DNA of 64,000 nt from an uncultured Eubacteriales bacterium (GTDB lineage: Bacteria; Bacillota; Clostridia; Oscillospirales; CAG-272): NCBI GenBank assembly GCA_934796165.1, contig CAKVOU010000007.1:27303-91302 (forward strand). The letters run 5' to 3'. How positions within the stretch are numbered: the first letter of the stretch is position 1; the number at the start of each line of letters is the position of its first letter. Under the pieces are notes generated by a model. That model did not search any database, had not been told where the DNA came from, and was given only the letters and a program-made list of their open reading frames with translations. A program made the position numbers and the translations under genes. This document shows positions 29,195 to 56,150 of the stretch, in pieces.

Positions 29195-29989
29195 ATGGCA
29201 ATGTCTCCTTACGAAATCAAAAAAGAGATCTGCGAGATCGGCAAGCGCGTGTATGACAAGGGCTTTGTCGCGGCAAATGACGGCAACATCTCCGTTAAAG
29301 TGAACGACAACGAGTTTTACTGCACCCCGACCGGCGTGTCCAAGGGCTACATGACCCCCGACATGATCATCCGCATTGACGGAAACGGCAACAAGCTGGA
29401 GGGTCGTCTGAACCCCTCCTCCGAGATCAAGATGCACCTGCGCGTTTACCGCGAGCGTCCCGATGTCATGGCAGTCGTGCACGCACATCCTCCGATCGCT
29501 ACGGCGTTCACGGTTGCGAACGTCCCGCTCAACCAGTATATTCTTCCCGAGGCGGTCCTTTCCCTCGGTGACGTTCCGACCTGCGAATACGGCACGCCGT
29601 CCACCATGGAGATTCCGGATTCCCTCATGCCCTACATCCAGAATCACGACGCGTTCCTGCTCAAGAACCACGGCGCCCTGACCGTCGGCAACAGCCTGCA
29701 GAAGGCAATGTTTGTCATGGAAGAGGTCGAGTTCAACGCAAAGATCTGTATGTATGCGCGCCAGCTCGGCGGCGTGGACGAGATCCCCTGCGACCAGCTT
29801 GAAAAGCTGATGGAGCTCCGCAAGAAGATGAATATGCCCGGCAGGCATCCCGGTTGCCGGATGTGCCCCAACAAGGGAACCGACAAGTGCCACTGCAAGA
29901 CCGATGCCACGACCTGTTCCTCCAACACGGCAAATCCCGACCTTGTCGCCGAGATCACCCGCCGCGTGATGGCACAGCTGAACAAATAA
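29195..29989 (+). CDS. class II (fuculose/rhamnulose-phosphate type) aldolase with Cys-rich linker and C-terminal encapsulation-peptide-like helix
   Basis: ANDGNISVK...SSEIKMHLRVY...VVHAHPP aldolase_II motifs. An extra roughly 50 aa tail ends in NPDLVAEITRRVMAQLNK. Confidence 0.9.
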   Translation: MAMSPYEIKKEICEIGKRVYDKGFVAANDGNISVKVNDNEFYCTPTGVSKGYMTPDMIIRIDGNGNKLEGRLNPSSEIKMHLRVYRERPDVMAVVHAHPPIATAFTVANVPLNQYILPEAVLSLGDVPTCEYGTPSTMEIPDSLMPYIQNHDAFLLKNHGALTVGNSLQKAMFVMEEVEFNAKICMYARQLGGVDEIPCDQLEKLMELRKKMNMPGRHPGCRMCPNKGTDKCHCKTDATTCSSNTANPDLVAEITRRVMAQLNK

Positions 29990-30031
29990 TCCGGATTCCC
30001 GAAAATTTACGGAAAGGAATCATACATAACT

Positions 30032-31249
30032 ATGGAACTCAGTCAGAATGAGATCGAACGCATCGTCAGAGAAGTGCTCGGCTCGGTCGGGAGCACCGCC
30101 GCAAATGCGGGCGGTCCCCTTCCCAAAACCGCGCACGTTGCGATGCTGACCGGTCCCAAGCATTTTGAAGTCAAGGAATTCCCCGTTCCCGAGCTCACGG
30201 ACGACGACATTCTCGTCCGGGTCGAGGGTGCCGGCGTCTGCGGAACCGACGTGCATGAATGGCGCGCCGATCCGTTCGGACTCATTCCCGTCGTGCTCGG
30301 TCACGAGGGAACGGGCGAGGTGGTCTACCTCGGCAAGAACATCAAAAAGGACACGGCGGGAAATCCGCTGAAAGTCGGCGACAAGCTGGTGACCTCGGTC
30401 ATCTCCTGCGGCGACTGCTACATCTGCCGCATGGTGCCGGGCAGAACCAACCTCTGCGACGCGCAGGGCGTGTTCGGTCTGATCGGCGACAAGCGCGGCA
30501 CCGCCGAGGGCAACCGCCTCAACGGCTGGTTCTCGGATTACATGCTCATCCGCGGCAAGGGCACGACCTACTTCCGCGTCAACGAGCTGAACCTCAACCA
30601 GAGAATGCTCCTCGAGCTTGCGACCGTCTGTGTTCACGCGCTGGAGCGCGGTCAGAGCACGGGTCTGCTCAACTTCAACTCCAAGGTTCTCTTACAGGGC
30701 TGCGGACCTGTCGGACTGATGATGTTGTGTGTGCTCCGCGCGGCGGGCATCAACCACGTCATCGCGCTGGATGGCAACGAAGACCGTCTGAAGCTGGCGC
30801 AGGCACTGGGAGCCAAGTCAACGATCTGCTTCAAGCGTCCCGATGAGGACACGCTTGACAAGCGCGTTGCAAAGATCAAGGAGCTTGCCAACGGCGTCGG
30901 CGTGGACTTTGCATATCAGTGCACGGGCGCACCCGCGGCGGCGGCTGACATCTACTCCTACATCCGCCGGGGCGGCGGCATGTGCGAGATGGGCTTCTTC
31001 GTCAACAACGGAGAGTACTCCGTCAACCCGCACCTTGCTATGTGCAACAAGGAGATCAACATCGTCGGCTCGTGGGATTACAGCGCATCGGATTACCCGA
31101 CCGCCGTCGCATTCCTCAAGCAGTGCGCGGAGATGAACATCCCCGTGGAGAAGCTCATCACCCACTCCTTCCCGCTCGACCAGATGAACGAAGCGATGGA
31201 GACCAACGTGGCGCAGAAGGGCATCAAGATCTGCTACATTGCAAAGTAA
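30032..31249 (+). CDS. zinc-dependent MDR-family alcohol dehydrogenase with N-terminal encapsulation-peptide-like helix
   Basis: GVCGTDVHEW and GHEGTGEVV Zn-ADH motifs. An N-terminal extension of roughly 35 aa, MELSQNEIERIVREVLGSVG, precedes the catalytic domain. Confidence 0.9.
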   Translation: MELSQNEIERIVREVLGSVGSTAANAGGPLPKTAHVAMLTGPKHFEVKEFPVPELTDDDILVRVEGAGVCGTDVHEWRADPFGLIPVVLGHEGTGEVVYLGKNIKKDTAGNPLKVGDKLVTSVISCGDCYICRMVPGRTNLCDAQGVFGLIGDKRGTAEGNRLNGWFSDYMLIRGKGTTYFRVNELNLNQRMLLELATVCVHALERGQSTGLLNFNSKVLLQGCGPVGLMMLCVLRAAGINHVIALDGNEDRLKLAQALGAKSTICFKRPDEDTLDKRVAKIKELANGVGVDFAYQCTGAPAAAADIYSYIRRGGGMCEMGFFVNNGEYSVNPHLAMCNKEINIVGSWDYSASDYPTAVAFLKQCAEMNIPVEKLITHSFPLDQMNEAMETNVAQKGIKICYIAK

Positions 31250-31288
31250 CAAACAAACGCATCATCAAAAAGAAAGAGGAACACCGGA

Positions 31289-31612
31289 ATGTCACACGCG
31301 CTCGGAATGATCGAGGTATACGGCTTCACGACTGCCATTGTCACGGCGGACGCCGCGGCGAAAGCGGCGGACGTGGAGATCGTTGCCATTGACAAGAACA
31401 AGCCGGCAAATGCCGACAAATGCGAGGTTCCGCTCGTGATGGTCGTCAAAATGGAAGGCAGCGAGGACGCAGTGGAGGCGGCGATGGAGGCAGGCATCAA
31501 GGCTGCCCGGGATCGCGGACGCTACATTACCTCAAAGCTGATTGCCCGGCTCTCGGAGGACGCGGAATGGTTTGCGCGTCTGGACGCGACGGGGCATGAC
31601 AAGCTCCGCTGA
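31289..31612 (+). CDS. BMC-H shell protein (Pfam00936 type) with internal insertion and C-terminal extension
   Basis: [28 protein letters not shown]... Confidence 0.85.
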
Positions 31613-31662
31613 GGCGGAAAACGAAACATAATCTGAACATTATATTTAAGGAGAACAAAACA

Positions 31663-31938
31663 ATGCAGGAAGCACTCGGAATGATCGAGACAAGAGGTCT
31701 CGTCGCAGCAATTGAAGCAGCAGACGCCATGGTCAAGGCGGCAAACGTCGTCCTCGTCGGCTCCGAGAAGATCGGATCCGGGCTCGTCAGCATCATGGTC
31801 CGCGGAGATGTCGGAGCTGTCAAGTCGGCTGTGGAAGCAGGAAACGAAGCGGCAAGCAGACTCGGCGAGGTCGTTGCAACCCACGTAATCCCGAGACCCC
31901 ACGCAGACGTCGAGAAGCTGCTCCCCAAGCTCGGCTGA
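31663..31938 (+). CDS. BMC-H shell protein (PduA/EutM-like)
   Basis: [27 protein letters not shown]...[15 protein letters not shown]...THVIPRPH. Confidence 0.95.
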
Positions 31939-31953
31939 TTTTCCTGATCCGTC

Positions 31954-32223
31954 ATGGAAAACGCAATTGCACTTCTTGAAGTACAGGCGAATGTCGCCGC
32001 GATCGCGGGGCTTGACGCAATGGTGAAGGCGGCAAACGTCCGTCTCATCCACGTCGAGCGCCGCCTCGGCGGACGGCTCATCACCGTCGTTGTGGAGGGT
32101 TCCGTTTCCGACGTGACCGCGGCGCTTGAAGCCGGAAAGGTCGCGGCGGGAGAGGTCGGAACCGTCAAATGCGCGGAGGTCATCGCCCGTCCTCACGAAG
32201 AGGTCATGAAATTTCTGAAGTGA
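31954..32223 (+). CDS. BMC-H shell protein, divergent paralogue
   Basis: [28 protein letters not shown]...VEGSVSDVTAALEAG. Confidence 0.9.
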   Translation: MENAIALLEVQANVAAIAGLDAMVKAANVRLIHVERRLGGRLITVVVEGSVSDVTAALEAGKVAAGEVGTVKCAEVIARPHEEVMKFLK

Positions 32224-32359
32224 CCGGAAACACCCGTTTCCCGCGAAAAACCGCTCCCCAAGGCGCGGCGTCCCCGTTCGGGAACGGATACCAACGCCTG
32301 TTGACCGCATACGCGGAAAACATAAAATAAGTAATGATATCAAATAGGAGGATATTACA

Positions 32360-32632
32360 ATGGAAGCTCTTGGCATGATTGAGACCAGAGGTCTGGTTGC
32401 CGCAATCGAGGCAGCCGATGCAATGGTCAAGGCAGCAAACGTCGTCCTCATCGGCTCCGAGAAGATCGGTTCCGGTTTGGTCAGCGTCATGGTGCGCGGA
32501 GATGTCGGTGCCGTAAAGGCAGCTGTCGAAGCAGGCGGAGCCGCAGCAGGCAAGCTCGGCGAAGTCGTTGCGACCCACGTGATCCCGAGACCTCACGCAG
32601 ACGTCGAAAAGCTGCTCCCCAAGCTCGGCTGA
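32360..32632 (+). CDS. BMC-H shell protein (PduA/EutM-like), about 90% aa-identical paralogue of 31663..31938
   Basis: Near-identical protein with many synonymous nucleotide differences. Strong AGGAGG SD. Confidence 0.95.
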
Positions 32633-33147
32633 TTGTCGTCTGACAGCTGATCCGGGCAACCGCCTGCGGGACGCTTTTCGTCTCCCGTATGCCGCTTGCC
32701 GGGCAGTCTCAAAGCGGGACTGCCCGGCAGAGCCCCGGCGCTGTGTTTCCTTTTTGGGCGCTTCCGCCATATCCGTTTTTCCCTATCCGTTTTTTCTATC
32801 CGCTTTGCTTTTTTACCGGTGTCCCTTCCGCATGAGGAGGGAGCATCGCACAACAGGGCTTCCCGTTCCGTATGCGCATCATACCGGGACAGCCAGCCGC
32901 GTCCCTCGGGCGTCCGCCCCGCGGCGCACGGATTTTTGCCGTGAAACTGCACGGGGAACAAGCAATGATCAGCGGTCGGCAGTCAACGGCAGTGGTCATC
33001 CGTAATCGTTGGTCTGCGGTCGTTCAACTATCCGGCTGTCATCATCTGTCAGCCGGCAACCATCGGAAAATTCACCGCTCCCCGGGGGAGGCGGTATCCA
33101 TACTCGCACGCCGCGCCACAGGGTCCGGCGGGAAAGGCAGGAACTCC

Positions 33148-33399
33148 ATGCAAAAAGGAATCGTCATCGGAAACGTCGTATCCACGCGGAAACAGGACAC
33201 GCTGGTCGGATACAAGTTTCTCGAGGTCAGGATCATTGAAAACAACCGTGAGACGGACAAGTATCTCATCGCGGTAGACACGGTCGGCGCCGGCATCGGC
33301 GAGACCGTTCTCCTCACGACCGGAAGCGGTGCACGTCTTGCGCTCCGTTCCCCGGACGCTCCGGTGGACGCGGCAGTCGTCGGTATCGTCGATTATTGA
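33148..33399 (+). CDS. BMC-P pentameric vertex protein (EutN/CcmL/PduN family)
   Basis: ORF 32872..33399 trimmed to the ATG at 33148. MQKGIVIGNVVSTRKQDTLVGYKFLEV...DAAVVGIVD. Confidence 0.9.
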   Translation: MQKGIVIGNVVSTRKQDTLVGYKFLEVRIIENNRETDKYLIAVDTVGAGIGETVLLTTGSGARLALRSPDAPVDAAVVGIVDY

Positions 33400-33611
33400 C
33401 GCGCGGACACCGGATTTTCCCGGGCGGATCCGCCGGAAAGCCGGAAGAAACGCCGTATCCGGACGACACCCCATGCGACAACTCTGCCGGTACCCGAGCC
33501 GCAGTCCCGCGGGCGGGCAGCGATCCGGCAAACCAACGGAATCCGAAAGCTTCTGTCGGGCAACCCGACTATTACCCTCCCCTCCCGGGAGGTTCATAAG
33601 GAACAGTACTT

Positions 33612-34940
33612 ATGCAAACGAAACTTGTTGAACTCATGAAACAGGCGTCCGTCGTCGGTGCGGGCGGAGCGGGCTTCCCCTCCTATGCAAAGATTGCGGA
33701 CGGAGCGGACACGCTGGTGGTCAACGCCGCCGAGTGTGAGCCTCTGACCTATACCGACCTGACGCTCATGCGTCATCATATGCCCGAGATCATCCGCGGC
33801 GTGGAGATCGTTCTCTCGGAAACGGGAATGGAGCGCGGCATCGTCGGCATGAAGACCCACACGGGCAAGGAGCTCGGTTACACAGACGGGCAGGTGCTCG
33901 GCAAGAACGTCACCGTCTGCCTGCTTCCCGACGTCTACCCGATGGGCGACGAAATCTCACTCATTTACGAAACAACCGGCAGGCTGGTTCAGCCCGGTGC
34001 GCTTCCCATCACCCAGCACGTCATCGTCTACAACGCGGAAACGGTCTACAACATCTACCGCGCCGTAACCGAGGGCGCGCCCGTCACGGAAAAGTGGCTG
34101 TCCATCGGCGGCGACTTAAAACAGGGCTACATCGTCCGGGTCCCGATCGGCATGCGCATCTCCGAGCTGTTTGAAAAGCTCGGCATCACCATCCCCGAAG
34201 GGCACGTACTCATCGACGGCGGTCCGTCCATGGGCAAGATCATCCCGCTTTCCGGCTCGGTCATCCGCAAGACGACCAAGGGTCTTCTGATCCTTCCCGA
34301 CACCATTCCCGCCGTGGTCAACCAGAACCGCTCGCCGGACGAGCAGAGAAAAATCGCAAGCTCGGTCTGCTGCCAGTGCTCGCGCTGTACGGAGCTTTGC
34401 CCGCGGCATATGCTCGGCTACCCGATCGAACCGCACCGCATGGTACGTTCCTCGGTGAGCATCGCCAAGGACGATCCGATTCTCATCCAGACGGCGCAGG
34501 TCTGCTGTTCCTGCGGCATCTGTTCCGTTGCCGCGTGCTGTCAGGGCATTTCCCCCCGCGCGGTCATCAACGAATACAAGGGGATCCTTGCAAAGAACCG
34601 CGTCCGCTTCAACGCGAACGGCAAGATCTATCATCCCCATCCCGACAGAGAGAACCGCATGATGTCCTCCGAGCGCTGGAAAGAGCTGCTCGGCGTCAAG
34701 CGGTTTGACAAGGAAGGTAAGTTCCTCCCCGACCTCATGGGAGCCAAAGAGGTTGTCATTCCCATGAGTATGCACATCGGCGCGCCGTCGGTCCCCGCAG
34801 TGAGTGTCGGCGACCATGTGACGGCAGGACAGCTGATTGCGGGCGCCGCCGAGGGTGCGCTCTCGGTTCCCCAGTACGCGTCCGTCACGGGCAAGGTCAC
34901 CTTTGCCGACGCAAAGCAGATCATCATTCAGGCAGACTGA
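33612..34940 (+). CDS. PduS-like flavo-iron-sulfur oxidoreductase (RnfC/Complex1_51K-related)
   Basis: GAGGAGFPS nucleotide-binding motif, two Cys clusters (CCQCSRCTELCP, CCSCGICSVAAC), and a C-terminal RnfC-type barrel IPMSMHIGAPSVPAVSVGDHV. Confidence 0.85.
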   Translation: MQTKLVELMKQASVVGAGGAGFPSYAKIADGADTLVVNAAECEPLTYTDLTLMRHHMPEIIRGVEIVLSETGMERGIVGMKTHTGKELGYTDGQVLGKNVTVCLLPDVYPMGDEISLIYETTGRLVQPGALPITQHVIVYNAETVYNIYRAVTEGAPVTEKWLSIGGDLKQGYIVRVPIGMRISELFEKLGITIPEGHVLIDGGPSMGKIIPLSGSVIRKTTKGLLILPDTIPAVVNQNRSPDEQRKIASSVCCQCSRCTELCPRHMLGYPIEPHRMVRSSVSIAKDDPILIQTAQVCCSCGICSVAACCQGISPRAVINEYKGILAKNRVRFNANGKIYHPHPDRENRMMSSERWKELLGVKRFDKEGKFLPDLMGAKEVVIPMSMHIGAPSVPAVSVGDHVTAGQLIAGAAEGALSVPQYASVTGKVTFADAKQIIIQAD

Positions 34941-35035
34941 CGCGGTGGTATATACCGGATCGTGCCGCGGCACCGCCGGGATACAGCCGTGAAACCAAAT
35001 ACCGGAACGAATCCACAGAAAGGCAGAGTTAATAT

Positions 35036-35581
35036 ATGTATCAGGCAGTCGGAGTCATGGAACTCAAAAGCATCGCCAAGGGGATCGAAGCGGCAGACGA
35101 CGCGCTCAAGAGCGCGGGAATCCGTCTCGTGTCCGCGCATCCCTCCTGCCCCGGAAAATACGAAATCATTCTGACAGGCTCGGTGTCCAATGTGACCGCC
35201 GCCGTCGATCATGTCAAGGAAAGATTCGGAGACGTGATCGTGGACAGCTGCGTCATGGGCAGAATCGACGAGCAGGTCATCACCGCTCTCTACGGCACGC
35301 AGGCAGTCGCAAAGGAAGGTTCACTCGGCATTGTCGAGACCTATTCCGCGTCCTCCGCGATCAAGGCGGCGGATATCGCGGTCAAGACCTCCCGCGTGGA
35401 GATTTACGAATTGCGTCTGTCCCGCGGTATGGGCGGCAAGGGCGTTCTCCTCGTCACGGGCGAGGTCGGGGACGTAACGGCTGCCGTGGAAGCCGGCGCA
35501 AAGTACGCAAAGGAGCAGTCGCTCTATAACTACTCCGCTGTCATCGCCGCTCCCCACGAGGAGCTCTGGGAACAGCTCTGA
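35036..35581 (+). CDS. tandem-domain BMC-T shell protein, PduT-like
   Basis: Two fused BMC domains. The SCPGKY cysteine sits at the position of the PduT pore [4Fe-4S] ligand. Confidence 0.85.
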   Translation: MYQAVGVMELKSIAKGIEAADDALKSAGIRLVSAHPSCPGKYEIILTGSVSNVTAAVDHVKERFGDVIVDSCVMGRIDEQVITALYGTQAVAKEGSLGIVETYSASSAIKAADIAVKTSRVEIYELRLSRGMGGKGVLLVTGEVGDVTAAVEAGAKYAKEQSLYNYSAVIAAPHEELWEQL

Positions 35582-35703
35582 TAAAATTGCCGGATGCCGG
35601 GAGAATATCCCCGCAGCCTGCAAAGAATTACCGAAAGCCGCCGGTTTTTCCGGAACGGCTTCCGGTTTTCCCCGTTTGATTCCGTCCGAAAGGAGGCAAG
35701 CCC

Positions 35704-38232
35704 GTGGAATCCATTCGTTTTTGCCTTAAAAAGAGCGAGCGTATCACCAAGCTGGTGCACGACCTCTACGATCATCTCCCCGAGATTGAGCCGTACCGTG
35801 CCGAGCTGGTCACAGAGAGCTACAAACAGACCGAAAACCTGCCGATCATCAAAAGACGTTCGGCGGCTTTTCGTCATATTCTCGAAAACTTCCCCGTCGT
35901 TATCCGTGACGGGGAGCTGATTGCCGGCTCCAACTCCGTTTCCCCGCGCGGGTGTCAGACCTTCCCGGAATACTCCTTTGAATGGCTGGAGCCGGAGTTT
36001 GACACGATTGCCACACGCGAAGCGGATCCTTTTTACATTTCCGACGATACCAAGCGTCGTCTTTCTGCCGTCCACCCTTATTGGAAGGGTAAGACGGTGA
36101 GCGACCTTGCCGCTTCAAACATGGATCCCGAGGTACTGGATGTTTTCCTGCACCACGGCATTTTCACGGTCGGCAACTACTTCTACAACGGCATCGGGCA
36201 CGTCAACGTCAACTACGAAAAGGTCATCCGCGACGGGTATGCATCCTTCCTTGACGAAGTGCGCAGGACGCGCGCGTCGCTTGACATGGGAAGCGGCGAC
36301 TACATTACGCGCAAGCAGTTTCTCGACGCGGTGGAGGAATCGCTCCTTGCCGTCATCGGCTACGCGCACCGCTATGCGGAGCTTGCGGAAAAGACCGCCG
36401 GCGGCTGTGCCGATCCGGTCCGCCGCCGCGAGCTGAAGCGCATTGCCGACGCCTGCCGGTGGGTCCCGGAGCATGGTGCGCGTACCTTCTTCGAGGCGTG
36501 CCAGTCCTTCTGGTTCGTGCAGCAGCTTCTGCAGCTGGAATCCAGCGGACATTCCATCTCTCCCGGGCGCTTTGATCAGTATATGTATCCCTATTTCAGG
36601 GCGGACATTGAGTCGGGCAGAGAAACCCTCGAATCGGCACAGGAGCTGATCGACAACATCTGGGTCAAACTCAATGACCTGAACAAGGTGCGCGACGCGG
36701 CATCGGCAAAGGGCTTTGCCGGATACGGGCTGTTCCAGAATCTGATCGTGGGCGGTCAGGACGAGAACGGGCGCGACGCGACCAACGAATTGTCCTATCT
36801 TTGCCTCGAAGCCTCCATGCACGTCCGTCTGCCCCAGCCGTCCCTGTCCATCCGGATCTGGAACGGCACGCCGCACGATCTCATGATCAAGGCGGTCTCG
36901 GTCACGCGCGACGGGCTCGGTGTTCCCGCGTTCTACAACGACGAGGTGATTATTCCCGCGCTGATGAATCGGGGGCTTTCGCTTGCCGAGGCGCGCGACT
37001 ACTGCATCATCGGTTGCGTGGAGCCGCAGAAGGGACACATGACCGACGGCTGGCACGACGCGGCGTTCTTCAATATGTGCCGTCCTCTGGAAATGGTATT
37101 TTCCGACGGCTTTGACCGCGGAGTGCAGATCGGTCCCCACACGGGGAATGTGGAGGAGTTCTCCACCTTTGAAGAATTCTTTGACGCCTACAAAAAGCAG
37201 GAGCACGCCATGCTCAGAATGCTGGTGAACGCCGACAACGCGGTGGATCTGGCGCACGCGGTGCGCTGTCCCCTGCCCTTTGAGTCCTCCATGGTGGATG
37301 ACTGCATCGGGCGCGGCAGATCACTCCAGGAGGGCGGTGCGCACTACAATTTCACGGGTCCGCAGGGCTTCGGCATTGCCAACGTGACCGATGCGCTCAC
37401 GGCGATCCGGGAGCTGGTCTACAACCAAAAGTCGGTCACCATGAAAGAAATGAAGGAAGCGATCGCCGCCAACTTCGGCGAAGCGCCCTCCAAGGAAGAA
37501 GCGATCCGGCTGACGGCGGAGGTAGTCGCACAGCTGACCGGGACCGGTGTCACCGTCACGGACGCGCAGATCGCGGACATCTGCCGCATGATTCTCTCGG
37601 GCAACGCGCTCCCCGAGGCAAAGCGCGCGCGTTACCATGAAATCAGGGAAATGATCGACGCGCTGCCGAGGTACGGCAACGACGACGAGACGGTCGATCT
37701 GCTTGCACGCGAGGTCGCCTACACCTACACGCGTCCGCTTGAGACCTTTACCAACCCGCGCGGCGGGCGGTATCAGGCAGGACTGTATCCGGTATCCGCC
37801 AATGTTCCGCTCGGCGCGGAGACGGGAGCGACGCCGGACGGAAGGCTCTGCGGCACGCCAATTGCGGACGGGGTCGGCCCCGCGCAGGGGCGGGACACCC
37901 ACGGTCCGACGGCGGCGGCAAACTCCGTGGCGAAGCTGGATCACGGCATTGCCTCCAACGGAACGCTGTTCAACATGAAATTCCATCCGTCCGCGCTTGC
38001 GGGCATGGCGGGACTTGAAAAGTTTGCCGCCTTCATCCGCGGATTCTTCGATCAGAAAGGTATGCACGTGCAGTTCAACGTGGTCTCCAGGGAGACGTTG
38101 CTTGACGCGCAGGCGCACCCCGAAAACTACAAAACGCTGGTCGTCCGCGTTGCGGGATACAGTGCGCTCTTCACGACGCTGTCGCGTTCGCTTCAGGACG
38201 ACATCATCAGCCGTACCGAGCAAGGGTTTTAA
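35704..38232 (+). CDS. glycyl radical enzyme, B12-independent diol (1,2-propanediol) dehydratase-like
   Basis: GTG start with AAAGGAGG upstream. Cys loop IIGCVEPQ, C-terminal glycyl loop VVRVAGYSALF, 842 aa. The substrate call rests on locus context only. Confidence 0.9.
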   Translation: MESIRFCLKKSERITKLVHDLYDHLPEIEPYRAELVTESYKQTENLPIIKRRSAAFRHILENFPVVIRDGELIAGSNSVSPRGCQTFPEYSFEWLEPEFDTIATREADPFYISDDTKRRLSAVHPYWKGKTVSDLAASNMDPEVLDVFLHHGIFTVGNYFYNGIGHVNVNYEKVIRDGYASFLDEVRRTRASLDMGSGDYITRKQFLDAVEESLLAVIGYAHRYAELAEKTAGGCADPVRRRELKRIADACRWVPEHGARTFFEACQSFWFVQQLLQLESSGHSISPGRFDQYMYPYFRADIESGRETLESAQELIDNIWVKLNDLNKVRDAASAKGFAGYGLFQNLIVGGQDENGRDATNELSYLCLEASMHVRLPQPSLSIRIWNGTPHDLMIKAVSVTRDGLGVPAFYNDEVIIPALMNRGLSLAEARDYCIIGCVEPQKGHMTDGWHDAAFFNMCRPLEMVFSDGFDRGVQIGPHTGNVEEFSTFEEFFDAYKKQEHAMLRMLVNADNAVDLAHAVRCPLPFESSMVDDCIGRGRSLQEGGAHYNFTGPQGFGIANVTDALTAIRELVYNQKSVTMKEMKEAIAANFGEAPSKEEAIRLTAEVVAQLTGTGVTVTDAQIADICRMILSGNALPEAKRARYHEIREMIDALPRYGNDDETVDLLAREVAYTYTRPLETFTNPRGGRYQAGLYPVSANVPLGAETGATPDGRLCGTPIADGVGPAQGRDTHGPTAAANSVAKLDHGIASNGTLFNMKFHPSALAGMAGLEKFAAFIRGFFDQKGMHVQFNVVSRETLLDAQAHPENYKTLVVRVAGYSALFTTLSRSLQDDIISRTEQGF

Positions 38233-38468
38233 GGGAATTCCGGGAGAGTAAGCGAGTCGGGCGGCGGAAGTCCGCGGTTGCGGCTCGGGGGCTCTGGGAG
38301 ACGAGGGGGCACGGCGGACGGAGAGCCGCTGAGCGCGGGCGGAAGTCGCCCGGCTGCGCGCGGATACAGGTTTCTGCGTATACCGGTAAAGTCGTCCCTC
38401 GCACAGTACAGAGTTACCCCTCGGACCAGCAGATTTGCCCATAAAAAAGACCGAAAGGAGACCGTGCC

Positions 38469-39299
38469 ATGTATCTGTACGGCGGACAATCGAATGCTGA
38501 CAGCCGGGCGGAATCTCCGGACGGCTCCGTCAGGGGGCGCATCTTTGACATCCAAAGATACTCCGTACACGACGGTCCCGGCATCCGCACCATTGTATTC
38601 TTCAAGGGCTGTGCGCTGCGTTGCCGTTGGTGCTGCAACCCCGAATCCCAGGAATCCGGAATCCAGACCATGGTCCGCGCGGGAAAGACCGAAACGGTCG
38701 GGCGCGACGTGACCGTTGACGAGGTGCTTTCCGAGGTGCTCCGCGACCGTCCGTATTACCTGCGTTCCGGCGGCGGTATGACGCTCTCCGGCGGAGAGGC
38801 ACTGCTTCAGCCGGAATTTGCCCTTGCACTCCTCCGGGCGGCGCACGACGAAGGGCTTGACACTGCAATCGAGACGGCGGGCTTTGTTCCCGAAGAAAAC
38901 CTTGTACGGGTGCTCCCCGAAGTCGATCATGTGCTGATGGACATCAAGCACATGGACAAAAACAAGCACCGTGCCTTCACGGGGCAATCCAACGAACGGA
39001 TTCTTTCCAATGCACGCTATACCGCCTTCCACGCAAAAGAACTGATCATCCGGGTACCGGTCATCCCGACCTTCAACGATACGGAGGAAGAGATCCGCGC
39101 GATCGCCGCATTCGCGGCGGGGTTACCCGGCGTGAAAAAACTACACCTGCTTCCCTACCATCGTCTGGGACAGGACAAATACACGGGGTTATCCCGCGAC
39201 TACGGAATGGGGGAGGTTCCCCCGCCGACAAAGGAGCACATGGAAACGCTTCTTTCGGTTGCAGAAGAATCCGGGCTGACCTGTCAGATCGGCGGCTGA
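38469..39299 (+). CDS. glycyl-radical enzyme activating radical-SAM protein (short, PflA-like)
   Basis: HDGPGIRTIVFFKGCALRCRWCCNPES CX3CX2C motif. 276 aa. Confidence 0.9.
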   Translation: MYLYGGQSNADSRAESPDGSVRGRIFDIQRYSVHDGPGIRTIVFFKGCALRCRWCCNPESQESGIQTMVRAGKTETVGRDVTVDEVLSEVLRDRPYYLRSGGGMTLSGGEALLQPEFALALLRAAHDEGLDTAIETAGFVPEENLVRVLPEVDHVLMDIKHMDKNKHRAFTGQSNERILSNARYTAFHAKELIIRVPVIPTFNDTEEEIRAIAAFAAGLPGVKKLHLLPYHRLGQDKYTGLSRDYGMGEVPPPTKEHMETLLSVAEESGLTCQIGG

Positions 39300-39537
39300 C
39301 ATCCGCCGCCACGCTCGCTTCCCGCGCCCGCCTGCGGCGCTTCGCGCCGCTGCCGCCGGGAGCCGGGCAATCATGTTTCAAAAAAACGGGCGGTTCTCCG
39401 CCCCGGCTCCCGGCGCCCCGCCACCCGCTCCGCGGGTGGCGCGGGCGCGGTACCGCAAAGGGGTTCTTCCCGGCGGCGGTACACCACACAAGCACGGAGA
39501 ACTGTTCCGCACGGTTTTCCCGGATAAGGAGAATGCA

Positions 39538-39906
39538 ATGAGCCAAGACCTGTTCAAAGAAAATATGCGTATTGTCCAGGAGCTGGTTCCAGGGCGGCAG
39601 ATCACACTCGCGCACATCATCGCCAACCCCGACCGCGAGCTGTACCGCAAGCTGGGACTTGACCCCGCGGTGGATTACGCGCACGCGGCAATCGGCATTC
39701 TGACCGTCAGTCCCGCGGAATCCGCTGTCATCGCGGCGGATCTCTCCATGAAGTCCTCGGACGCGTCGCTCGGCTTTGTGGACCGCTTCACGGGCACGGT
39801 GCTCCTGACCGGTTCGGTTTCCGCGGTGGAATCCTCCTTTTCGGCAGTCACGGAATACTTCCGCGCAACACTCGGTTACGCGGTCTGCCCCATGACGCGC
39901 ACGTAA
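39538..39906 (+). CDS. circularly permuted BMC shell protein (PduU/EutS-like)
   Basis: ORF 39373..39906 trimmed to the ATG at 39538 (AAGGAGA upstream). VQELVPGRQITLAHIIANPD...AIGILTVSPAESAVIAADL. Confidence 0.85.
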   Translation: MSQDLFKENMRIVQELVPGRQITLAHIIANPDRELYRKLGLDPAVDYAHAAIGILTVSPAESAVIAADLSMKSSDASLGFVDRFTGTVLLTGSVSAVESSFSAVTEYFRATLGYAVCPMTRT

Positions 39907-39911
39907 CCTTC

Positions 39912-40337
39912 ATGAAGAAACTGATCCTCATGGGCAGGGTCGCGGCGGGGAAAACCACGCTGACCCAGGCACTGCGTGGCGAACAGCTCCGCTACTGCAA
40001 GACCCAGTACATCGACTACCGCGACACCATCATCGACACCCCCGGTGAATATACGGAGGTTGCCCGCCTCGGTGCCGCGCTTCAGCTTTACGCTTACGAA
40101 GCGGACATTGTGGGGCTGGTCATCGGTGCGGAGGAGCCGTATTCGGTGTTTCCGCCCGCGATCACGGGCATGGTCAACCGCGAGGTCATCGGAATCGTTT
40201 CCGGTATTGACAGACCGGGCGCCGATCCCGACCGCGCTGAGCGCTGGCTGCGGCTTTCGGGGTGCCGGCGCGTGTTCCGCCTGTCCTCCGTAACGGGCGA
40301 GGGACTTGGTGACCTGATTGCCTATCTGGATGCCTGA
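39912..40337 (+). CDS. EutP/PduV-family small GTPase
   Basis: P-loop GRVAAGKTTL, with DTPGEY. Confidence 0.85.
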   Translation: MKKLILMGRVAAGKTTLTQALRGEQLRYCKTQYIDYRDTIIDTPGEYTEVARLGAALQLYAYEADIVGLVIGAEEPYSVFPPAITGMVNREVIGIVSGIDRPGADPDRAERWLRLSGCRRVFRLSSVTGEGLGDLIAYLDA

Positions 40338-40651
40338 TTTTCTGAGAGAAGCGAAAAAACAATCGTCCGCTCCGGCGAACCGTCCGCCGGTCCTGACATC
40401 TGACGAAGAGTATGTACCTGTTGCCCCTATCCTGGGACGCGGCGTTTCTTGCCGCTTCCGCGCCGGCATCCGACGGTTGCCCGGTGTGCCGATCCGTTTT
40501 TTCCTTGTCCTTTTGGGGCTGACGGGCTGCACATCTGTATCTCTCCTGCGCGGTGCGTTCCGTTCCGTATCTCCGGACAATCGGCAATCACCCGTCTGCT
40601 CACCCGATTTCATCGCACGACCACGTATCTTTACATGATTGCGAGGGAACT

Positions 40652-41446
40652 ATGAATAGAAAGACCAAAGTCATCTGTTTTGCCAACAACAAAGGCGGCT
40701 CCGGGAAGTCCACCACTTGCTCCAACGTCGGCTATGCCATGGCACTGGCGGGAAAGCGGGTTCTGCTCATCGACGGGGACATGCAGCTCAACCTGACCCT
40801 TTCCTTCTTTTCCGAGGAGGAAGCGCTCGGCTTCGTGCAATCCGGAAAGAACCTGTACACGGGCATGAAGGAAGCGCGGGACCTTTCGGAATACGTCGTC
40901 CCGACGGCGTATGCGGGCGTTGATCTGATTCCCTCCTCCACGCTCATGAGCTCGATCGAATTTGATCTGTTCACCAAGTGGCAAAGAGAATTCATTCTCA
41001 AAAAGGGGCTTGCAAAAATCCTTGACTCCGGCGTTTACGACTACGTGCTCATTGACGCGCCGCCGACGCTCGGCGGGTGGGTCATGAACATCATGTGCGC
41101 GTCGGACTACCTCATCATTCCGGTGGAAGCCAGCCCGTGGGGGCTGTTCGGGCTTGCCAATATGTTTGATTTTGTCGGTCAGGTGCGCGGCATTGCGCCG
41201 GACCTCAGTCTGCTCGGCATCGCCATCACCAAAGCGGACGAACGCAAGAATTATTTCAAGCAGACGGTCGAAACGCTCCGTTCGCAGAACGATGTTCGCC
41301 TGTTTGAACATTACATCCGCATTGACGCATCGGTGGAATGGGCACAGGACGATTCCAAGCCGGTAATCGCGTTCAAGCCCTCCAGCCGGAGTGCAAAGGA
41401 ATACACAGAACTGACAAAGGAGATTCTTCAGTATGTCGATCGGTAA
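40652..41446 (+). CDS. ParA/MinD-family deviant Walker-A ATPase (no N-terminal DNA-binding domain)
   Basis: ORF 40553..41446 trimmed to the ATG at 40652. KVICFANNKGGSGKSTT, LLIDGDMQ and VLIDAPPTLG motifs. Confidence 0.9.
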   Translation: MNRKTKVICFANNKGGSGKSTTCSNVGYAMALAGKRVLLIDGDMQLNLTLSFFSEEEALGFVQSGKNLYTGMKEARDLSEYVVPTAYAGVDLIPSSTLMSSIEFDLFTKWQREFILKKGLAKILDSGVYDYVLIDAPPTLGGWVMNIMCASDYLIIPVEASPWGLFGLANMFDFVGQVRGIAPDLSLLGIAITKADERKNYFKQTVETLRSQNDVRLFEHYIRIDASVEWAQDDSKPVIAFKPSSRSAKEYTELTKEILQYVDR

Positions 41447-41813
41447 GAACAGTATTTCCCGTCTGTCCGGGGGAAAGCAGAACCCGACGGAAAAGACCGC
41501 AAAGAAGTTCCCGGAAGCAAACGAGGTGACGGAAACGGCGGCAAAGAAAGCGGAAAAAACCGCGAAGAGCGCGGCAAAGAAAGTAACAGGCAAGCGCACG
41601 AAAGAGAACGCAAAGACGGCAACCGTCCCTGCACAAACAGGTACCCGCAAGAGGACTTCGGCGTCCAAAGCGAAAGTACTTCCCGCAAAAACCGCGGAAT
41701 CCGCGGCAGCAGTGACCGCTCCGGAGGGGACCGCCGTGAAGTCCGCCGGGGAAAGCCGGGCATCCGCCGCATTCTGTGCAGTCGGCGACGCACTTCCCTA
41801 CTGGCTTCTGTAA
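41433..41813 (+). CDS. 126-aa lysine/alanine/threonine-rich, probably disordered ParA partner protein ending in PYWLL
   Basis: Overlaps the ParA gene by 14 nt and has its own AAAGGAG SD about 9 nt upstream. Low-complexity basic sequence. A strong terminator follows. Confidence 0.75.
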   Translation: MSIGKNSISRLSGGKQNPTEKTAKKFPEANEVTETAAKKAEKTAKSAAKKVTGKRTKENAKTATVPAQTGTRKRTSASKAKVLPAKTAESAAAVTAPEGTAVKSAGESRASAAFCAVGDALPYWLL

Positions 41814-41830
41814 TCTGAACAGCAAAAAAA

Positions 41831-41866
41831 GCAGGCAACCGCCGTGGCGGTTGCCTGCTTTTTTAT
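41831..41866. terminator. bidirectional rho-independent terminator
   Basis: GCAGGCAACCGCC pairs with GGCGGTTGCCTGC, flanked by an A-run and a T-run. Confidence 0.9.
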
Positions 41867-42021
41867 TTGGAGGGATCTCCGGATAAGGTGGCGTTTCCGG
41901 CAGTGCAGTACCCGAGAACGTTGAGGGAAACGGGTTCCGCAGGAACGGAGCGGCGGAACCCGGCAGTCTTTTTCCCCTCCGTGAAACCAAGTACCCATGC
42001 AAAGGGACGACGGGGGTGTTT

Positions 42022-43206
42022 TCAGACTCTGCGCCAAGCCTTGCCCCTGCCGGACTTCCCGTCTTCAAAAAGAAGTCCGAGCGCCGTAAGGAAACCGAGC
42101 GTTCCGTAGGTCGCCATACCGCAAATGCGGGTCGCCCTTGCGTATTCTGCGGCAGTAAAGCGTTCCGGCAGGGTGTCCGGCAGAAAATCCGCGCGATAAT
42201 CTTCGGGGACGGTGTAGGTCACGTCGTCAAGCAGAGCCGTCGGGATGCGTTCGTATCGGACGGAACCGCGCTTACCGTCCCTGCCCCAGCCGTTTTTCCA
42301 GCGATATTCACTGGTTTCGCACAAAAGCAGGCGAAGCGAGAGCCGCCCCGACGAAATATACGGCGTCAGCCAGAACAACTGTCCCGCAACATCCTGTATT
42401 CTCCCGCGGCGGGGGGATTTCCGGGGAGTACTGATCTCCCCCGTTACGGGATCGATCCACGAAAGGCGCTTGACGACTGAGACGGGGTGAACCAGTGTCA
42501 CGGGGTACGGGGTCTTCTTGAGATAATAGTCAAGCTTGGCGCGAAGCGGGTAAAAGCTGCCCGTCTGTACCTCAAAAATGCGTTCGCCGTCGAACACATC
42601 GGCAACGAACCGCGTGGAGCGGGAACGATCCACGGCATCCATCCGGATTTCCTGAAACTGCCTGTCCGCCAGATAATTCTTGATGACCGCGTGCATTCGT
42701 TTTTCACCGAGCGTACCGATGCCGCCGTCATGCGCCTGCGCTTCCAGCATATTCTCCCGGATCAGGCGGGCAAACCGCGCGCGGCTGGCAGCAACGGAAA
42801 CGTTTTTCTGCTCAGCCACGATAGCTTCCGCCGTCCCGGCAGAAACGGAGTTTCCCGTTTCCGGCACTGCTGTTCCCGGCGCTTCCGGCAAATCGGAGAT
42901 TTTCGGTGTTTGGGGCGCTGCCGGGCACTTTGACATCTTGGACGCGTGGGGTACCCGGTTTGCTTTCGGTGTATTGGTCACCTGCGCTGCCGGGCTCTTT
43001 GGCACTTGAGTCGCTCCCGGCGCTGCCGGGTTCTTTGACTTCTTGGACGCGTGGGGTACCCGGTTTGTTTTCGGTGCATTGGTCACCTGCGCCGGGATCG
43101 CTTGCAGTTCCTTGGTCGCTCCCGGTGCTGCCGGGCTCTTCGGCGCCTGAGTTTCCTTCACCGCCATGGTCACTTTCGTCGCTTTGGCTTTTTCGGATGT
43201 TGCCAT
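42022..43206 (-). CDS. hypothetical protein: repeat-rich Pro/Ala/Lys N-terminus plus PD-(D/E)xK-like nuclease fold and C-terminal wHTH-like domain
   Basis: ORF trimmed to the ATG at 43204-43206 (GGAGGG upstream). GEKRMHAVIKNYL...FVADVFDGERIFEVQTGSF...RKSPRRGR core. Domain calls are from memory and tentative. Confidence 0.75.
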   Translation of the reverse strand: MATSEKAKATKVTMAVKETQAPKSPAAPGATKELQAIPAQVTNAPKTNRVPHASKKSKNPAAPGATQVPKSPAAQVTNTPKANRVPHASKMSKCPAAPQTPKISDLPEAPGTAVPETGNSVSAGTAEAIVAEQKNVSVAASRARFARLIRENMLEAQAHDGGIGTLGEKRMHAVIKNYLADRQFQEIRMDAVDRSRSTRFVADVFDGERIFEVQTGSFYPLRAKLDYYLKKTPYPVTLVHPVSVVKRLSWIDPVTGEISTPRKSPRRGRIQDVAGQLFWLTPYISSGRLSLRLLLCETSEYRWKNGWGRDGKRGSVRYERIPTALLDDVTYTVPEDYRADFLPDTLPERFTAAEYARATRICGMATYGTLGFLTALGLLFEDGKSGRGKAWRRV

Positions 43207-43312
43207 TGCGTTTTCCCTCCTTCCCGGTTGATGATTTTTTGGACGATTTCGCGTTTCCGGCATCGACGGAATTCTCCGGCTTCCCCGCCGTGCGGGCGGC
43301 GTTTTTTGGTCC

Positions 43313-43500
43313 GCTGACGGCAGTCAGCCGATATCACTTATGTCGCCTGCCCGGCGAACTGGCGGCATTCTGTTACGTCGCCTGTCCTGCGAACCGACTG
43401 CAGTCCAACCAATCCGTTTACGTCGCCTGTCCCGCAAACTGACGGCAGTCAGCCGATATCACTTATGTCGCCTGCCCCGCAAACTGACTGCTGTACAGCT
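43313..43500. repeat. about 4.5 degenerate tandem copies (35-46 bp) of the 3' end of the ABC transporter gene
   Basis: Units starting TTA(C/T)GTCGCCTG(C/T)CC at about 43338, 43373, 43417 and 43463. The last is the real stop plus C-terminal codons. CTGACGGCAGTCAGCCGATATCAC occurs twice. Confidence 0.75.
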
Positions 43501-48678: not shown

Positions 48679-49046
48679 GAGACAAACGCAATTTTTCCCG
48701 ATTTGTTTACATTTCCCCGGTACATACCGACGCAACGATCGCTGTTTGCCGCTTTGGTGCAGTCACGCAGTCTTTGCGGCGGCAGACAATCGGCAATTTC
48801 CGCACGCTATGAGCAATATTGTAAGACATGAAACACCGCCCGTGGGACATGATAAAAGCAGACGGAAACTGCCGCGGAAAAACCGCGGTCGGGATCCATC
48901 TGCCCTTTTTACAATGCTTGATGATATGGTTACTCCCGCCGCGGCAGTCGTGCCCGCCGGGACAGTGAGGAGCGCCTGCGTCCGTTCCGGAAGCCGGACG
49001 TCGGAGCTCCCCGGAATACAGATTACAGAATAAAGGAAGTCCTTTT

Positions 49047-54830: not shown

Positions 54831-56150
54831 ATGACACGCGAGCTTCACATTCCGGGAACCCCCAATCCGCGCCAGCTTCTCTTCTTCCGCTCCACCGCCC
54901 GTTTTACCGCCTACGGCGGGGCGCGAGGCGGGGGAAAATCCTGGGCGCTCCGGCGCAAGCTGGTCGCCCTCTGCCTCCGCTACCCCGGGATCACCTGCCT
55001 GCTTGTCCGCAGGACGCTCCCGGAGCTGCGCGCAAACCACCTTCGTCCGCTGCTCACCGAGTACGCGGAGCTTCTCTCCTATTCCGAGGAACAAAAGTGC
55101 ATTTCCTTCCCGAACGGAAGCCGCATTTACCTCGGATACTGCGCGTCGGAACGCGACGTGCTGCGCTACCAGGGTCAGGAATACGACATTATCGCCATCG
55201 ACGAGGCAACGCAACTGAGCGAATATCAGTTTTCCATTTTCAAGGCCTGTCTGCGAGGCACCGGGGACTGTCCCCGAAGAATGTATCTGACCTGTAACCC
55301 CGGCGGCGTGGGACACGCGTGGGTCAAGCGTCTGTTTGTTGACCGCGCCTTCCGCAAGGGAGAAAATCCGGACGACTACTGCTTCATCCCAGCCCGCGTT
55401 TCCGACAATCACGTTCTGACAGACGCGGACCCCGAATACGTCAAAAGCCTCGAAAGCCTGCCGCCGCGGCTGCGCGACGCGTGGCTCCTCGGACGCTGGG
55501 ACGTATTCGAGGGACAGTTTTTTCCCGAGTTTGATCCGGAGATTCACACCTGCGACCGTTCGGTGATTCCCCAATACACAAGACGCTTTGTCGCACTGGA
55601 CTACGGATTCGATATGCTCGCCGCCCTGCTTCTCGGAGTCGGCGAGGACGGGATACTGTACGTGTTGCGCGAAACCTGCGTGCCGGGACTGACAGTGGGG
55701 GAAGCGGCGATGAAGGTGGCAGAGCTTGCCCGGGGGGAGGCTTGCGAATACGCGGTCGCCTCTCCGGATTTGTGGAACCGCCGGCAGGATACGGGACGCA
55801 GCGGCTTTGAGATCATGCAGGCTTGCCCGGGGATGCCCCCGATGCGGGCAGCCGATGACCGCCGCGTGCCCGGCTGGCGGGTACTCCGCGAATTGCTCCG
55901 CGTATCGGAAGAGTCTCAAGGCAAACCCCGGCTAATGATCTCACGGGATTGCCGCGAACTCATCCGGTGCCTCCCTGCACTGCTGTTTGACCGGGAGAGG
56001 TCGGAGGACGCGTCCGGGGAACCCCACGCCGTCACCCATGCGCCGGAGGCACTCCGGTACGCGGTGATGAGCCGGAGCCAACCGCCGGCAAAGCCGCCGG
56101 CAAGACACGACTTCCGCTTCCCCTCAAAAAAAGCAGCGTATTCGTTCTGA
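54831..56150 (+). CDS. phage terminase large subunit
   Basis: Walker A YGGARGGGKSWA, Walker B-like YDIIAIDEA, and a nuclease domain with the C-terminal HAVTHAPEALRY motif. Confidence 0.9.
   Translation: MTRELHIPGTPNPRQLLFFRSTARFTAYGGARGGGKSWALRRKLVALCLRYPGITCLLVRRTLPELRANHLRPLLTEYAELLSYSEEQKCISFPNGSRIYLGYCASERDVLRYQGQEYDIIAIDEATQLSEYQFSIFKACLRGTGDCPRRMYLTCNPGGVGHAWVKRLFVDRAFRKGENPDDYCFIPARVSDNHVLTDADPEYVKSLESLPPRLRDAWLLGRWDVFEGQFFPEFDPEIHTCDRSVIPQYTRRFVALDYGFDMLAALLLGVGEDGILYVLRETCVPGLTVGEAAMKVAELARGEACEYAVASPDLWNRRQDTGRSGFEIMQACPGMPPMRAADDRRVPGWRVLRELLRVSEESQGKPRLMISRDCRELIRCLPALLFDRERSEDASGEPHAVTHAPEALRYAVMSRSQPPAKPPARHDFRFPSKKAAYSF

Follow-up and report, generated by a model that had tools for sequence, protein, structure and literature searches.

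A ParA-type ATPase and a disordered basic partner beside a glycyl-radical microcompartment operon in an uncultured Clostridia genome: a candidate McdAB-like positioning system

We describe two overlapping genes in a 64,000-nucleotide stretch of DNA from an uncultured Eubacteriales bacterium (GTDB lineage Bacteria; Bacillota; Clostridia; Oscillospirales; CAG-272; NCBI GenBank assembly GCA_934796165.1, contig CAKVOU010000007.1, positions 27,303 to 91,302 of the forward strand), which we refer to as the window and in which position 1 is the first letter. The first gene encodes a ParA-type ATPase, the second a small basic protein that we call the partner, and both lie downstream of an operon for a glycyl-radical bacterial microcompartment (BMC). 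An original prediction, made from the sequence alone, had read the two as a possible counterpart of McdA and McdB, the ATPase and adaptor of carboxysomes. Comparative genomics supported the McdAB-like reading of the pair, and from it we infer a role in positioning. The pair comprises the following features.

40652 to 41446, forward strand: gene for a ParA/Soj-type deviant Walker A ATPase of the small type, 264 amino acids (open reading frame and translation)
40691 to 40714, forward strand: deviant Walker A motif KGGSGKST, residues 14–21, with the signature Lys14 (read from the sequence)
41416 to 41422, forward strand: Shine-Dalgarno sequence AAAGGAG of the partner gene, within the 3' end of the ParA gene and 10 nt before the ATG at 41433 (read directly)
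41433 to 41813, forward strand: gene for the partner, or adaptor, a 126-amino-acid basic disordered protein, whose start overlaps the end of the ParA gene by 14 nt (open reading frame)
41433 to 41465, forward strand: N-terminal peptide MSIGKNSISRL, proposed to bind ParA and to stimulate its ATPase (family logo of 75 partners)
41781 to 41810, forward strand: C-terminal motif VGDALPYWLL-COOH, proposed BMC-binding tail with Trp124 at position -3 (family logo of 75 partners)

The ATPase gene was found where the original prediction had placed it. The translation reads KVICFANNKGGSGKSTT at residues 6–22 and contains no N-terminal extension or helix-turn-helix (HTH); because the stretch that holds the deviant Walker A begins only five residues after the protein start, this is a small ParA without an N-terminal HTH, as had been claimed. 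The protein matched Pfam AAA_31 at 1e-49, and Lys14 and Lys19 were invariant in 81 clade members, likewise in a further alignment. Its AlphaFold2 model (pLDDT 86.3, pTM 0.89) was closest in fold to Bacillus subtilis Soj, Myxococcus xanthus ParA and Helicobacter pylori Soj, with TM scores of 0.86–0.91 in Foldseek.

The partner has no recognizable folded domain. Its open reading frame (ORF), the 14 nt overlap, the Shine-Dalgarno sequence of its own and the C-terminal ...GDALPYWLL, with Trp third from the end, were all as the original prediction had described them. We obtained no family match in Pfam, NCBIfam or PHROG, and neither these searches nor a search of the PDB revealed an HTH or ribbon-helix-helix domain; no folded domain was predicted by AlphaFold2 either, in agreement with the claim that the protein lacks both of these DNA-binding patterns. 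The AlphaFold2 model (mean pLDDT 53.7, pTM 0.12) contained a single helical turn at residues 123–125, and its highest-confidence part was the C-terminal stretch, the last block of which reached a pLDDT of 76. With 24 Lys and Arg against 10 Asp and Glu, the calculated isoelectric point (pI) was 10.2, so that disorder and basicity, both of which the original prediction had proposed to calculate, were borne out.

The pair stands directly behind the microcompartment genes, which comprise the following two features.

29195 to 39906, forward strand: glycyl-radical BMC operon, ending before PduV/EutP (Pfam)
39912 to 40337, forward strand: PduV/EutP small GTPase, the constant upstream neighbor of the pair (Pfam PduV-EutP, 8e-46)

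This arrangement recurred in relatives. The ATPase has thousands of relatives at 70–78% identity; in a scan that took one genome for each GTDB species, 370 stretches were confirmed to encode a ParA relative, and we analyzed the best 80 loci, whose ParA relatives are 67–100% identical. PduV/EutP lies directly upstream of ParA on the same strand in 75 of these 80, at the 3' end of a glycyl-radical BMC locus and usually together with a full BMC gene set; in some loci its end touches or runs into the start of ParA. A small ORF starts inside the ParA 3' end in 74 of the 80, while in three of the remaining six the contig runs out. Most of these ORFs overlap ParA by 14 nt and those of about nine loci by 26 nt, which is consistent with translational coupling. 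The contexts of ParA relatives that we looked up always presented a BMC protein, PduV/EutP, ParA and then a small overlapping ORF without a Pfam match. Downstream genes varied among relatives and included an FAD oxidoreductase, FeoB, Pth/Mfd, rhamnosidases, a phosphotransferase system component and NAD synthase.

Two variants of the arrangement were observed. In three of the 80 loci, all from Mediterraneibacter, a BMC shell gene lies no more than 2 kb from ParA; there (Candidatus Mediterraneibacter L069, 5995–6777, as well as L081 and L091) the clade member is an orphan, 71–74% identical and without a partner ORF, which adjoins an AraC-family regulator and an FGGY sugar kinase, with a tandem-BMC-domain gene 1.5 kb upstream on the opposite strand. 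In another group of loci (L014–L021, L029, L032, L035, L037, L042, L049, L051 and L059, and also L012), the glycyl-radical enzyme (GRE) and its activase are missing between BMC-T and the last BMC gene; this variant retains the zinc-dependent alcohol dehydrogenase (Zn-ADH), BMC-H, PduL, EutN, PduS, BMC-T, BMC, PduV, ParA and the partner.

We then compared 75 partners, namely the 74 from the best 80 loci and the window protein. Two termini are held fixed in this family, with the following consensus sequences.

Partner N terminus: M-[PS]-[IVL]-G-K-x-[SA]-[IL]-x-[RK]-V, with G4 and K5 invariant
Partner C terminus: hydrophobic-[GT]-[DE]-[ED]-[LM]-P-x-[Y56/H10/W7/F2]-L-L-COOH, with P(-5) and L(-2) invariant

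At the N terminus, M1 is invariant as well as G4 and K5, S7 is found in 85% of partners and position 10 is R or K in 100%; the hydrophobic residues are at positions 3 (I, V or L), 8 (I or L) and 11. At the C terminus, position -1 is L in 74 of the 75, position -6 is L or M, and positions -8 and -7 are mostly D or E. Position -3 is Y in 56 partners, H in 10, W in 7 and F in 2, the Trp being present in the window protein and six of the 74 locus partners. The C-terminal Trp is not a family invariant. We also looked for residues in PduV, BMC-S, BMC-T, BMC-H and PduS that co-vary with the C-terminal Trp; this signal was phylogenetically confounded, and we discarded it because most Trp-bearing loci have many lineage-specific substitutions in common.

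Between the two ends, little is conserved. Overall identity of family partners to the window protein is ∼20–40%, compared with 67–77% for ParA across the clade; the partners are rich in insertions and deletions, range from 73 to 223 amino acids in length and have a median pI of 9.75, and their middles are of low complexity (A 20%, K 20%, P 12%, E 10%, V 10%, T 9%). The same pattern of fixed ends and a variable middle was seen among 13 close relatives, in which the N-terminal peptide is invariant and one of which lacks ∼40 central residues while retaining both termini. A search with the partner sequence returned 12 close relatives only, and a profile built from the 13 close relatives found just three proteins among 1.84 billion representative proteins. 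A profile of 49 diverse partners, however, matched at least 1264 protein clusters. The family thus escapes a whole-length homology search, since the close-relative profile gave only three proteins, and becomes visible through ParA-anchored synteny and the diverse-partner profile. Among the 120 matches listed, the names given by the sources were uninformative: "hypothetical protein" and, on composition, one "topoisomerase IA-like protein". Such a pattern of conservation marks a two-ended adaptor whose ends are joined by a disordered linker, and does not look like that of a DNA-binding protein; fixed ends around a disordered middle fit a ParA-binding peptide joined to a cargo-binding tail.

A ParA-type ATPase followed by a small basic partner is also typical of type Ib DNA partition cassettes. 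The pair could accordingly be a partition module in which ParA works with a novel histone-like centromere- or DNA-binding protein of a plasmid, an integrative and conjugative element (ICE) or a prophage that happens to lie beside the BMC operon. The ATPase matched the PHROG "ParA-like partition protein" at 3e-60, some partners matched the K/A-rich histone-like Pfam family HC2 (PF07382), on composition alone, and phage-like genes occur elsewhere in the window, such as a terminase large subunit at 54831–56150 of the forward strand, ∼13 kb downstream of the pair. We nevertheless consider a DNA partition module highly improbable. The position after PduV is kept in 75 of the best 80 loci while the downstream flanks vary, the best plasmid and phage relatives of the ATPase are only 39% and 38% identical, respectively, and the ORF and Pfam analysis revealed no integrase, relaxase or replication genes flanking the pair; the two loci without nearby BMC genes that are described below sit among housekeeping genes. 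No iterons or repeat arrays were found in the intergenic DNA beside the pair, and no parS near it, the sole parS-like site being one at 48820 with three mismatches, at chance level and 7 kb off; the claim that iterons and parS-like repeats are missing nearby therefore stood. We checked two of the outcomes that the original prediction had named as speaking against it. One was that orthologues should occur mainly on plasmids or ICEs, or away from BMC loci, and we found otherwise, since 75 of 80 loci follow PduV/EutP and the plasmid and phage ParAs are less than 40% identical. The other was a partner with a ParB or ParG fold and a nearby centromere, and we detected no such fold, no parS and no iterons. 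The context, the 38–39% ParA identity and the lack of a centromere and of a DNA-binding fold effectively exclude an origin as the DNA partition system of a mobile element.

Alternatively, the ATPase could carry Fe-S clusters in the manner of Mrp/NBP35/ApbC and thereby mature the radical-SAM activase, PduS or PduT, in which case the small ORF would be unrelated or spurious. Several Fe-S proteins are encoded at the locus, and the Pfam family PF10609 (NUBPL iron-transfer P-loop NTPase) matched the ATPase weakly, at 2e-11; the AAA_31/ParA match is far stronger, no CxxC motif occurs in the ATPase sequence, and in fold the protein matches Soj/ParA. The small ORF is clearly a genuine one: its termini are invariant across the 75 partners, and the family takes in at least 1264 protein clusters. 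An Fe-S carrier is thus extremely improbable, and we discarded it as effectively excluded by the weak Pfam score, the missing CxxC and the Soj/ParA fold matches.

The N-terminal ParA-binding peptide of ParB takes the form L-G-[KR]-G-L-x-A-L. Such peptides are short and hydrophobic, with one central Lys or Arg (PMC12462528), and in McdB of Halothiobacillus neapolitanus Lys7 is critical, with Leu4, Leu8 and Ile12 predicted to contribute (PMC12139897). By analogy with both, the fixed N terminus of the partner may engage the ATPase. The C-terminal Trp of McdB is needed for carboxysome association, and Tyr largely substitutes for it in Synechococcus elongatus and partly in H. neapolitanus (PMC11321042); the natural Y/H/W/F variation at position -3 parallels this experimental W, Y, F gradient of McdB function. 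At the sequence level, the partner carries the hallmarks of an McdB: it is encoded after the ATPase gene, is disordered and basic, has an N-terminal Lys, and bears an aromatic residue within the last four residues next to acidic neighbors (PMC8359340; PMC11321042; PMC12139897).

We therefore favor, with a probability of roughly two in three, the interpretation that the two proteins form a system devoted to spacing and partitioning the glycyl-radical (fucose/rhamnose to 1,2-propanediol) BMC, in analogy to McdA/McdB. The Soj-like ATPase, bound to ATP, would form dimers on some cellular surface, most probably the nucleoid, while the adaptor would be anchored on the BMC exterior by its C-terminal [LM]-P-x-aromatic-L-L-COOH tail. 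Its N-terminal I-G-K-x-S-I-x-R peptide would bind the ParA dimer and stimulate ATP hydrolysis, and the resulting local depletion of ParA round each BMC would let the BMCs climb ParA gradients and separate, as in a Brownian ratchet. The long K/A/P/E/T-rich disordered middle would act as a flexible, fast-evolving linker, which may add multivalency or condensate behavior. ATPase stimulation, the identity of the matrix, nucleoid binding, shell binding and the positioning phenotype are the elements of this scheme that we infer.

Several observations weigh against a McdAB-like ratchet. Cyanothece McdA is further from the ATPase than Soj and ParA are, both in fold (TM ∼0.78 in Foldseek) and in sequence (6NON/6NOP; E value 2e-12 over residues 6–182, compared with 1e-23 to 7e-32 for Soj/ParA). 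Because fold and sequence are nearer to Soj/ParA than to Cyanothece McdA, the ATPase is, on sequence and model evidence, a Soj-like ParA of a separate clade and not an orthologue of any known McdA. The DNA-contacting residues K199, K227, K230 and K247 of H. pylori Soj (PMC6393308 for the Soj lysines) align with K203, A226, E229 and S244, so that only one of the four positions is basic, and where Soj has the canonical segment PRNVRLSEAP, this clade has an invariant R-[VI]-D-S-x-[VI]-E-W-A-Q-D. K203 is conserved across the clade, and further clade-conserved basic residues (R198, K199, R223, K242, K243 and R246) lie near the expected DNA-binding face; nucleoid binding is hence plausible from the sequence but unproven, because the DNA-contacting lysines and the PRNVRLSEAP segment of Soj are only partly kept. 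In two of the 80 loci, L053 and L054, the pair is surrounded by housekeeping genes and the nearest 6 kb contain no BMC gene, we detected no deposited structure in the PDB with similarity to the partner, and a 191-nt insertion lengthens the spacer between PduV and ParA, which makes co-transcription of the pair with the operon an assumption. Furthermore, Salmonella Pdu BMCs are spaced without ParA or MinD (PMC12866334), so metabolosomes do not universally need a ParA-type system. The function of every member of the family is a prediction.

The two housekeeping loci belong to Konateibacter massiliensis (L053, 5998–7102), where the neighbors are a GNAT acetyltransferase and an iron-dependent alcohol dehydrogenase, and to a Lachnospiraceae metagenome-assembled genome (L054, 6001–7079), where they are a helicase, a LysR regulator and aspartokinase. 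Both partners keep both motifs and end in ...CELPTYLL and ...CDLPVHLL, respectively.

The pair might also be dedicated to the BMC without forming a nucleoid-based ratchet of the McdAB type: for example, the tail could dock on PduV/EutP instead of on shell proteins, which would make GTPase, ATPase and adaptor a three-part module, or the ATPase could act at the membrane or a pole or govern how BMCs are assembled, how many there are or how they turn over. Upstream of the pair stands, invariably, PduV/EutP, whose end often abuts or overlaps the ParA start, and PduV has been implicated in the movement of Pdu BMCs (cited in PMC8262871, PMC4207490); the partial retention of the Soj DNA-binding residues, with a clade-specific invariant acidic/Trp motif in their place, is also consistent with a matrix other than DNA. 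However, PduV/EutP is a common 3' gene of glycyl-radical microcompartment (GRM), propanediol utilization (PDU) and ethanolamine utilization (EUT) loci regardless of ParA (PMC4207490), so its adjacency to ParA may just reflect the appending of the pair to the operon end. The ATPase also lacks a MinD-like C-terminal amphipathic membrane helix, its C terminus ...KEILQYVDR being charged, and several clade-conserved basic residues surround the expected DNA-binding face. We regard such a non-ratchet role as unlikely, though deserving of serious attention.

Beyond the McdAB-like ratchet, the pair might represent an independent BMC-adaptor family of gut Clostridia, with at least 1264 clusters, that has converged on the McdB design. 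The invariant tail would then recognize a specific receptor at the metabolosome surface, which could be PduV/EutP, and GTPase, ATPase and adaptor would together form a positioning module. We offer this idea only tentatively, as quite unlikely; if true, such a GTPase-ATPase-adaptor module would be a three-part type not described for any BMC.

The BMC operon itself runs in the order class II aldolase, Zn-ADH, four BMC-H (genes at 31289, 31663, 31954 and 32360), EutN, PduS-like flavoprotein, BMC-T (35036), GRE, activase, BMC (39373) and PduV/EutP, and its Pfam content (several BMC, EutN_CcmL, PFL-like plus Gly_radical, and Radical_SAM) is that of a GRM locus. The GRE was nearest to the B12-independent 1,2-propanediol dehydratase 5I2A of Roseburia (1173 bits over the full length) and scored far above choline lyases. 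Since its best match is 5I2A, the locus is, to judge by this enzyme, of the fucose/rhamnose to propanediol type; rhamnosidase genes often follow the locus in relatives. The PduL phosphotransacylase is absent from the 64-kb window, 32633–33147 included, as searched by tblastn with the PduL of a relative; most related loci have PduL between the BMC-H genes and EutN, and the close relatives L001 and L013 are also without it. No aldehyde dehydrogenase was found among the window ORFs scanned, a scan that was not exhaustive. Directly upstream of the operon, on the reverse strand (24664–28902), lies a phage-like gene for a 1412-amino-acid protein with a Laminin_G_3 match and a weak tail-tip (GpJ C-terminal) match.

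The pair is flanked by two further features.

40338 to 40651, forward strand: PduV-ParA spacer of 314 nt with no predicted terminator, the final ∼100 nt being conserved in relatives
41825 to 41870, both strands: bidirectional intrinsic terminator of the pair and a convergent gene, an inverted repeat with an A-run and a T-run, flagged on both strands

A scan of the spacer revealed neither a forward-strand terminator-like site nor a sigma-70-like promoter, in line with the original description of a pair that begins 314 nt after EutP/PduV with no terminator between them. The spacer had no Rfam match to a regulatory RNA, and its RNA fold was not significant (z = -0.76). Alignment with three close relatives (L013, L005 and L001) showed that the ∼191-nt insertion, at about 40367–40558, is absent from them; it is unique within the window and absent from all fetched loci. 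By comparison, the ∼100 nt before the ParA start are nearly invariant, even where the partner of a relative is only ∼70% identical. The strong terminator that was said to close the pair proved to be a perfect 19-nt inverted repeat (41825–41843 and 41846–41864) with a T-run.

The same bidirectional terminator serves a convergent gene on the reverse strand (42022–43263) for a 413-amino-acid protein. Tandem repeats of 105 nt (42914–43140) form the N-terminal half of this gene and encode P/A/K/T-rich repeats, and the C-terminal domain of ∼230 amino acids has no match in Pfam, NCBIfam or PHROG. Between it and an ABC-transporter gene lies a 45-nt tandem repeat (43373–43488; 2.6 copies, 81% matches).

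McdAB-like systems for catabolic BMCs have been proposed before. ParA figures among the ancillary genes of BMC loci compiled by Axen et al. (2014; PMC4207490). McdA- and McdB-like genes within or beside non-carboxysome BMC operons were described from bioinformatic analysis by MacCready et al. (2021), the last four residues of the McdB-like proteins including a Tyr (PMC8359340, section 2.9 and Fig. 8f). The BMC types were given as PDU and GRM by Basalla et al. (2024), according to whom the McdB-like proteins there have Tyr or Phe instead of Trp (PMC11321042, Fig. 4). The original prediction knew of no experimentally characterized equivalent for catabolic BMCs in Firmicutes, and this stands for experiment (PMC13052382, PMC12866334); the idea itself, on the other hand, had already been predicted (PMC8359340, PMC11321042). 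We found no experimental study of non-carboxysome McdAB-like systems, and reviews and papers up to 2026 call them putative (PMC13052382, PMC12866334, PMC13001409); the supplement of PMC11321042 yielded no match for McdB-like C termini. As these papers still describe such systems as putative, the window holds a new member, bearing a Trp, of a predicted and experimentally uncharacterized class. Our analysis adds a quantitative synteny test, a definition of the family by two motifs together with its size, the natural variation at position -3 and the constant linkage to PduV/EutP.

The spacing and inheritance of catabolic BMCs have been little explored, with only the carboxysome McdAB studied. The family described here is an abundant and concrete candidate for such a system among gut Clostridia whose fermentation of fucose and rhamnose passes through 1,2-propanediol, and the N-terminal G-K peptide, the C-terminal P-x-aromatic-L-L tail and the natural Y/H/W/F variants offer experimental handles. 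The natural interchange of Trp and Tyr at one position lends support to the proposal of the C-terminal aromatic residue as a general element of BMC recognition. In addition, engineered BMCs might be positioned by using the two short motifs as portable tags.

One of the characterized systems closest to the pair is the McdA and McdB of the H. neapolitanus alpha-carboxysome (type 1 alpha-McdB, encoded after mcdA). Both combine a ParA-type ATPase that has a complete deviant Walker A and is encoded beside a BMC operon with a small protein (∼100 amino acids in H. neapolitanus) that is almost fully disordered, basic, biased in composition and encoded after the ATPase. Both small proteins have a key Lys flanked by hydrophobic residues within the N-terminal ∼20 residues (PMC12139897) and an aromatic residue within the last few, with acidic residues near it (PMC11321042). 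They differ in that the H. neapolitanus system serves a carboxysome in Proteobacteria, whereas the one here would serve a catabolic glycyl-radical metabolosome in Clostridia, and in that the tail of the partner, [LM]-P-x-aromatic-L-L-COOH, is sharply defined, with an aromatic residue that is mostly Tyr. The published GRM and PDU pairs follow the same concept, an aromatic residue again being among the last four or five, and Tyr is the commonest here too (56 of 75); the published McdB-like proteins are said to lack Trp, whereas Trp occurs in 7 of the 75 partners, His in 10 and Phe in 2. Judging by their descriptions, those pairs probably belong to the same family as the window pair.

The nearest relatives of the ATPase in sequence and fold are chromosomal Soj/ParA proteins (M. 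xanthus ParA, 8RAY, and the Soj proteins of B. subtilis, Thermus thermophilus and H. pylori), unlike which it has the clade-specific motif in place of PRNVRLSEAP. The N terminus of the partner, hydrophobic-G-K-x-S-I-x-R-V, resembles the ParB peptide in its single central Lys/Arg among hydrophobic residues (PMC12462528). Unlike ParB, however, the partner has no HTH or CTPase domain and no parS, and its proposed cargo is a protein organelle rather than DNA. Type Ib cassettes (ParF/ParG of TP228; delta/omega of pSM19035) likewise pair a small ParA that lacks an HTH with a small partner encoded after it, and the ATPase is stimulated there by the flexible, basic N-terminal tail of this partner, as we propose for the one in the window. 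ParG and omega, in contrast, have a ribbon-helix-helix domain and bind iterons, whereas the partner has no folded domain and no repeats nearby; those cassettes reside on plasmids, and the pair described here resides at a chromosomal BMC operon.

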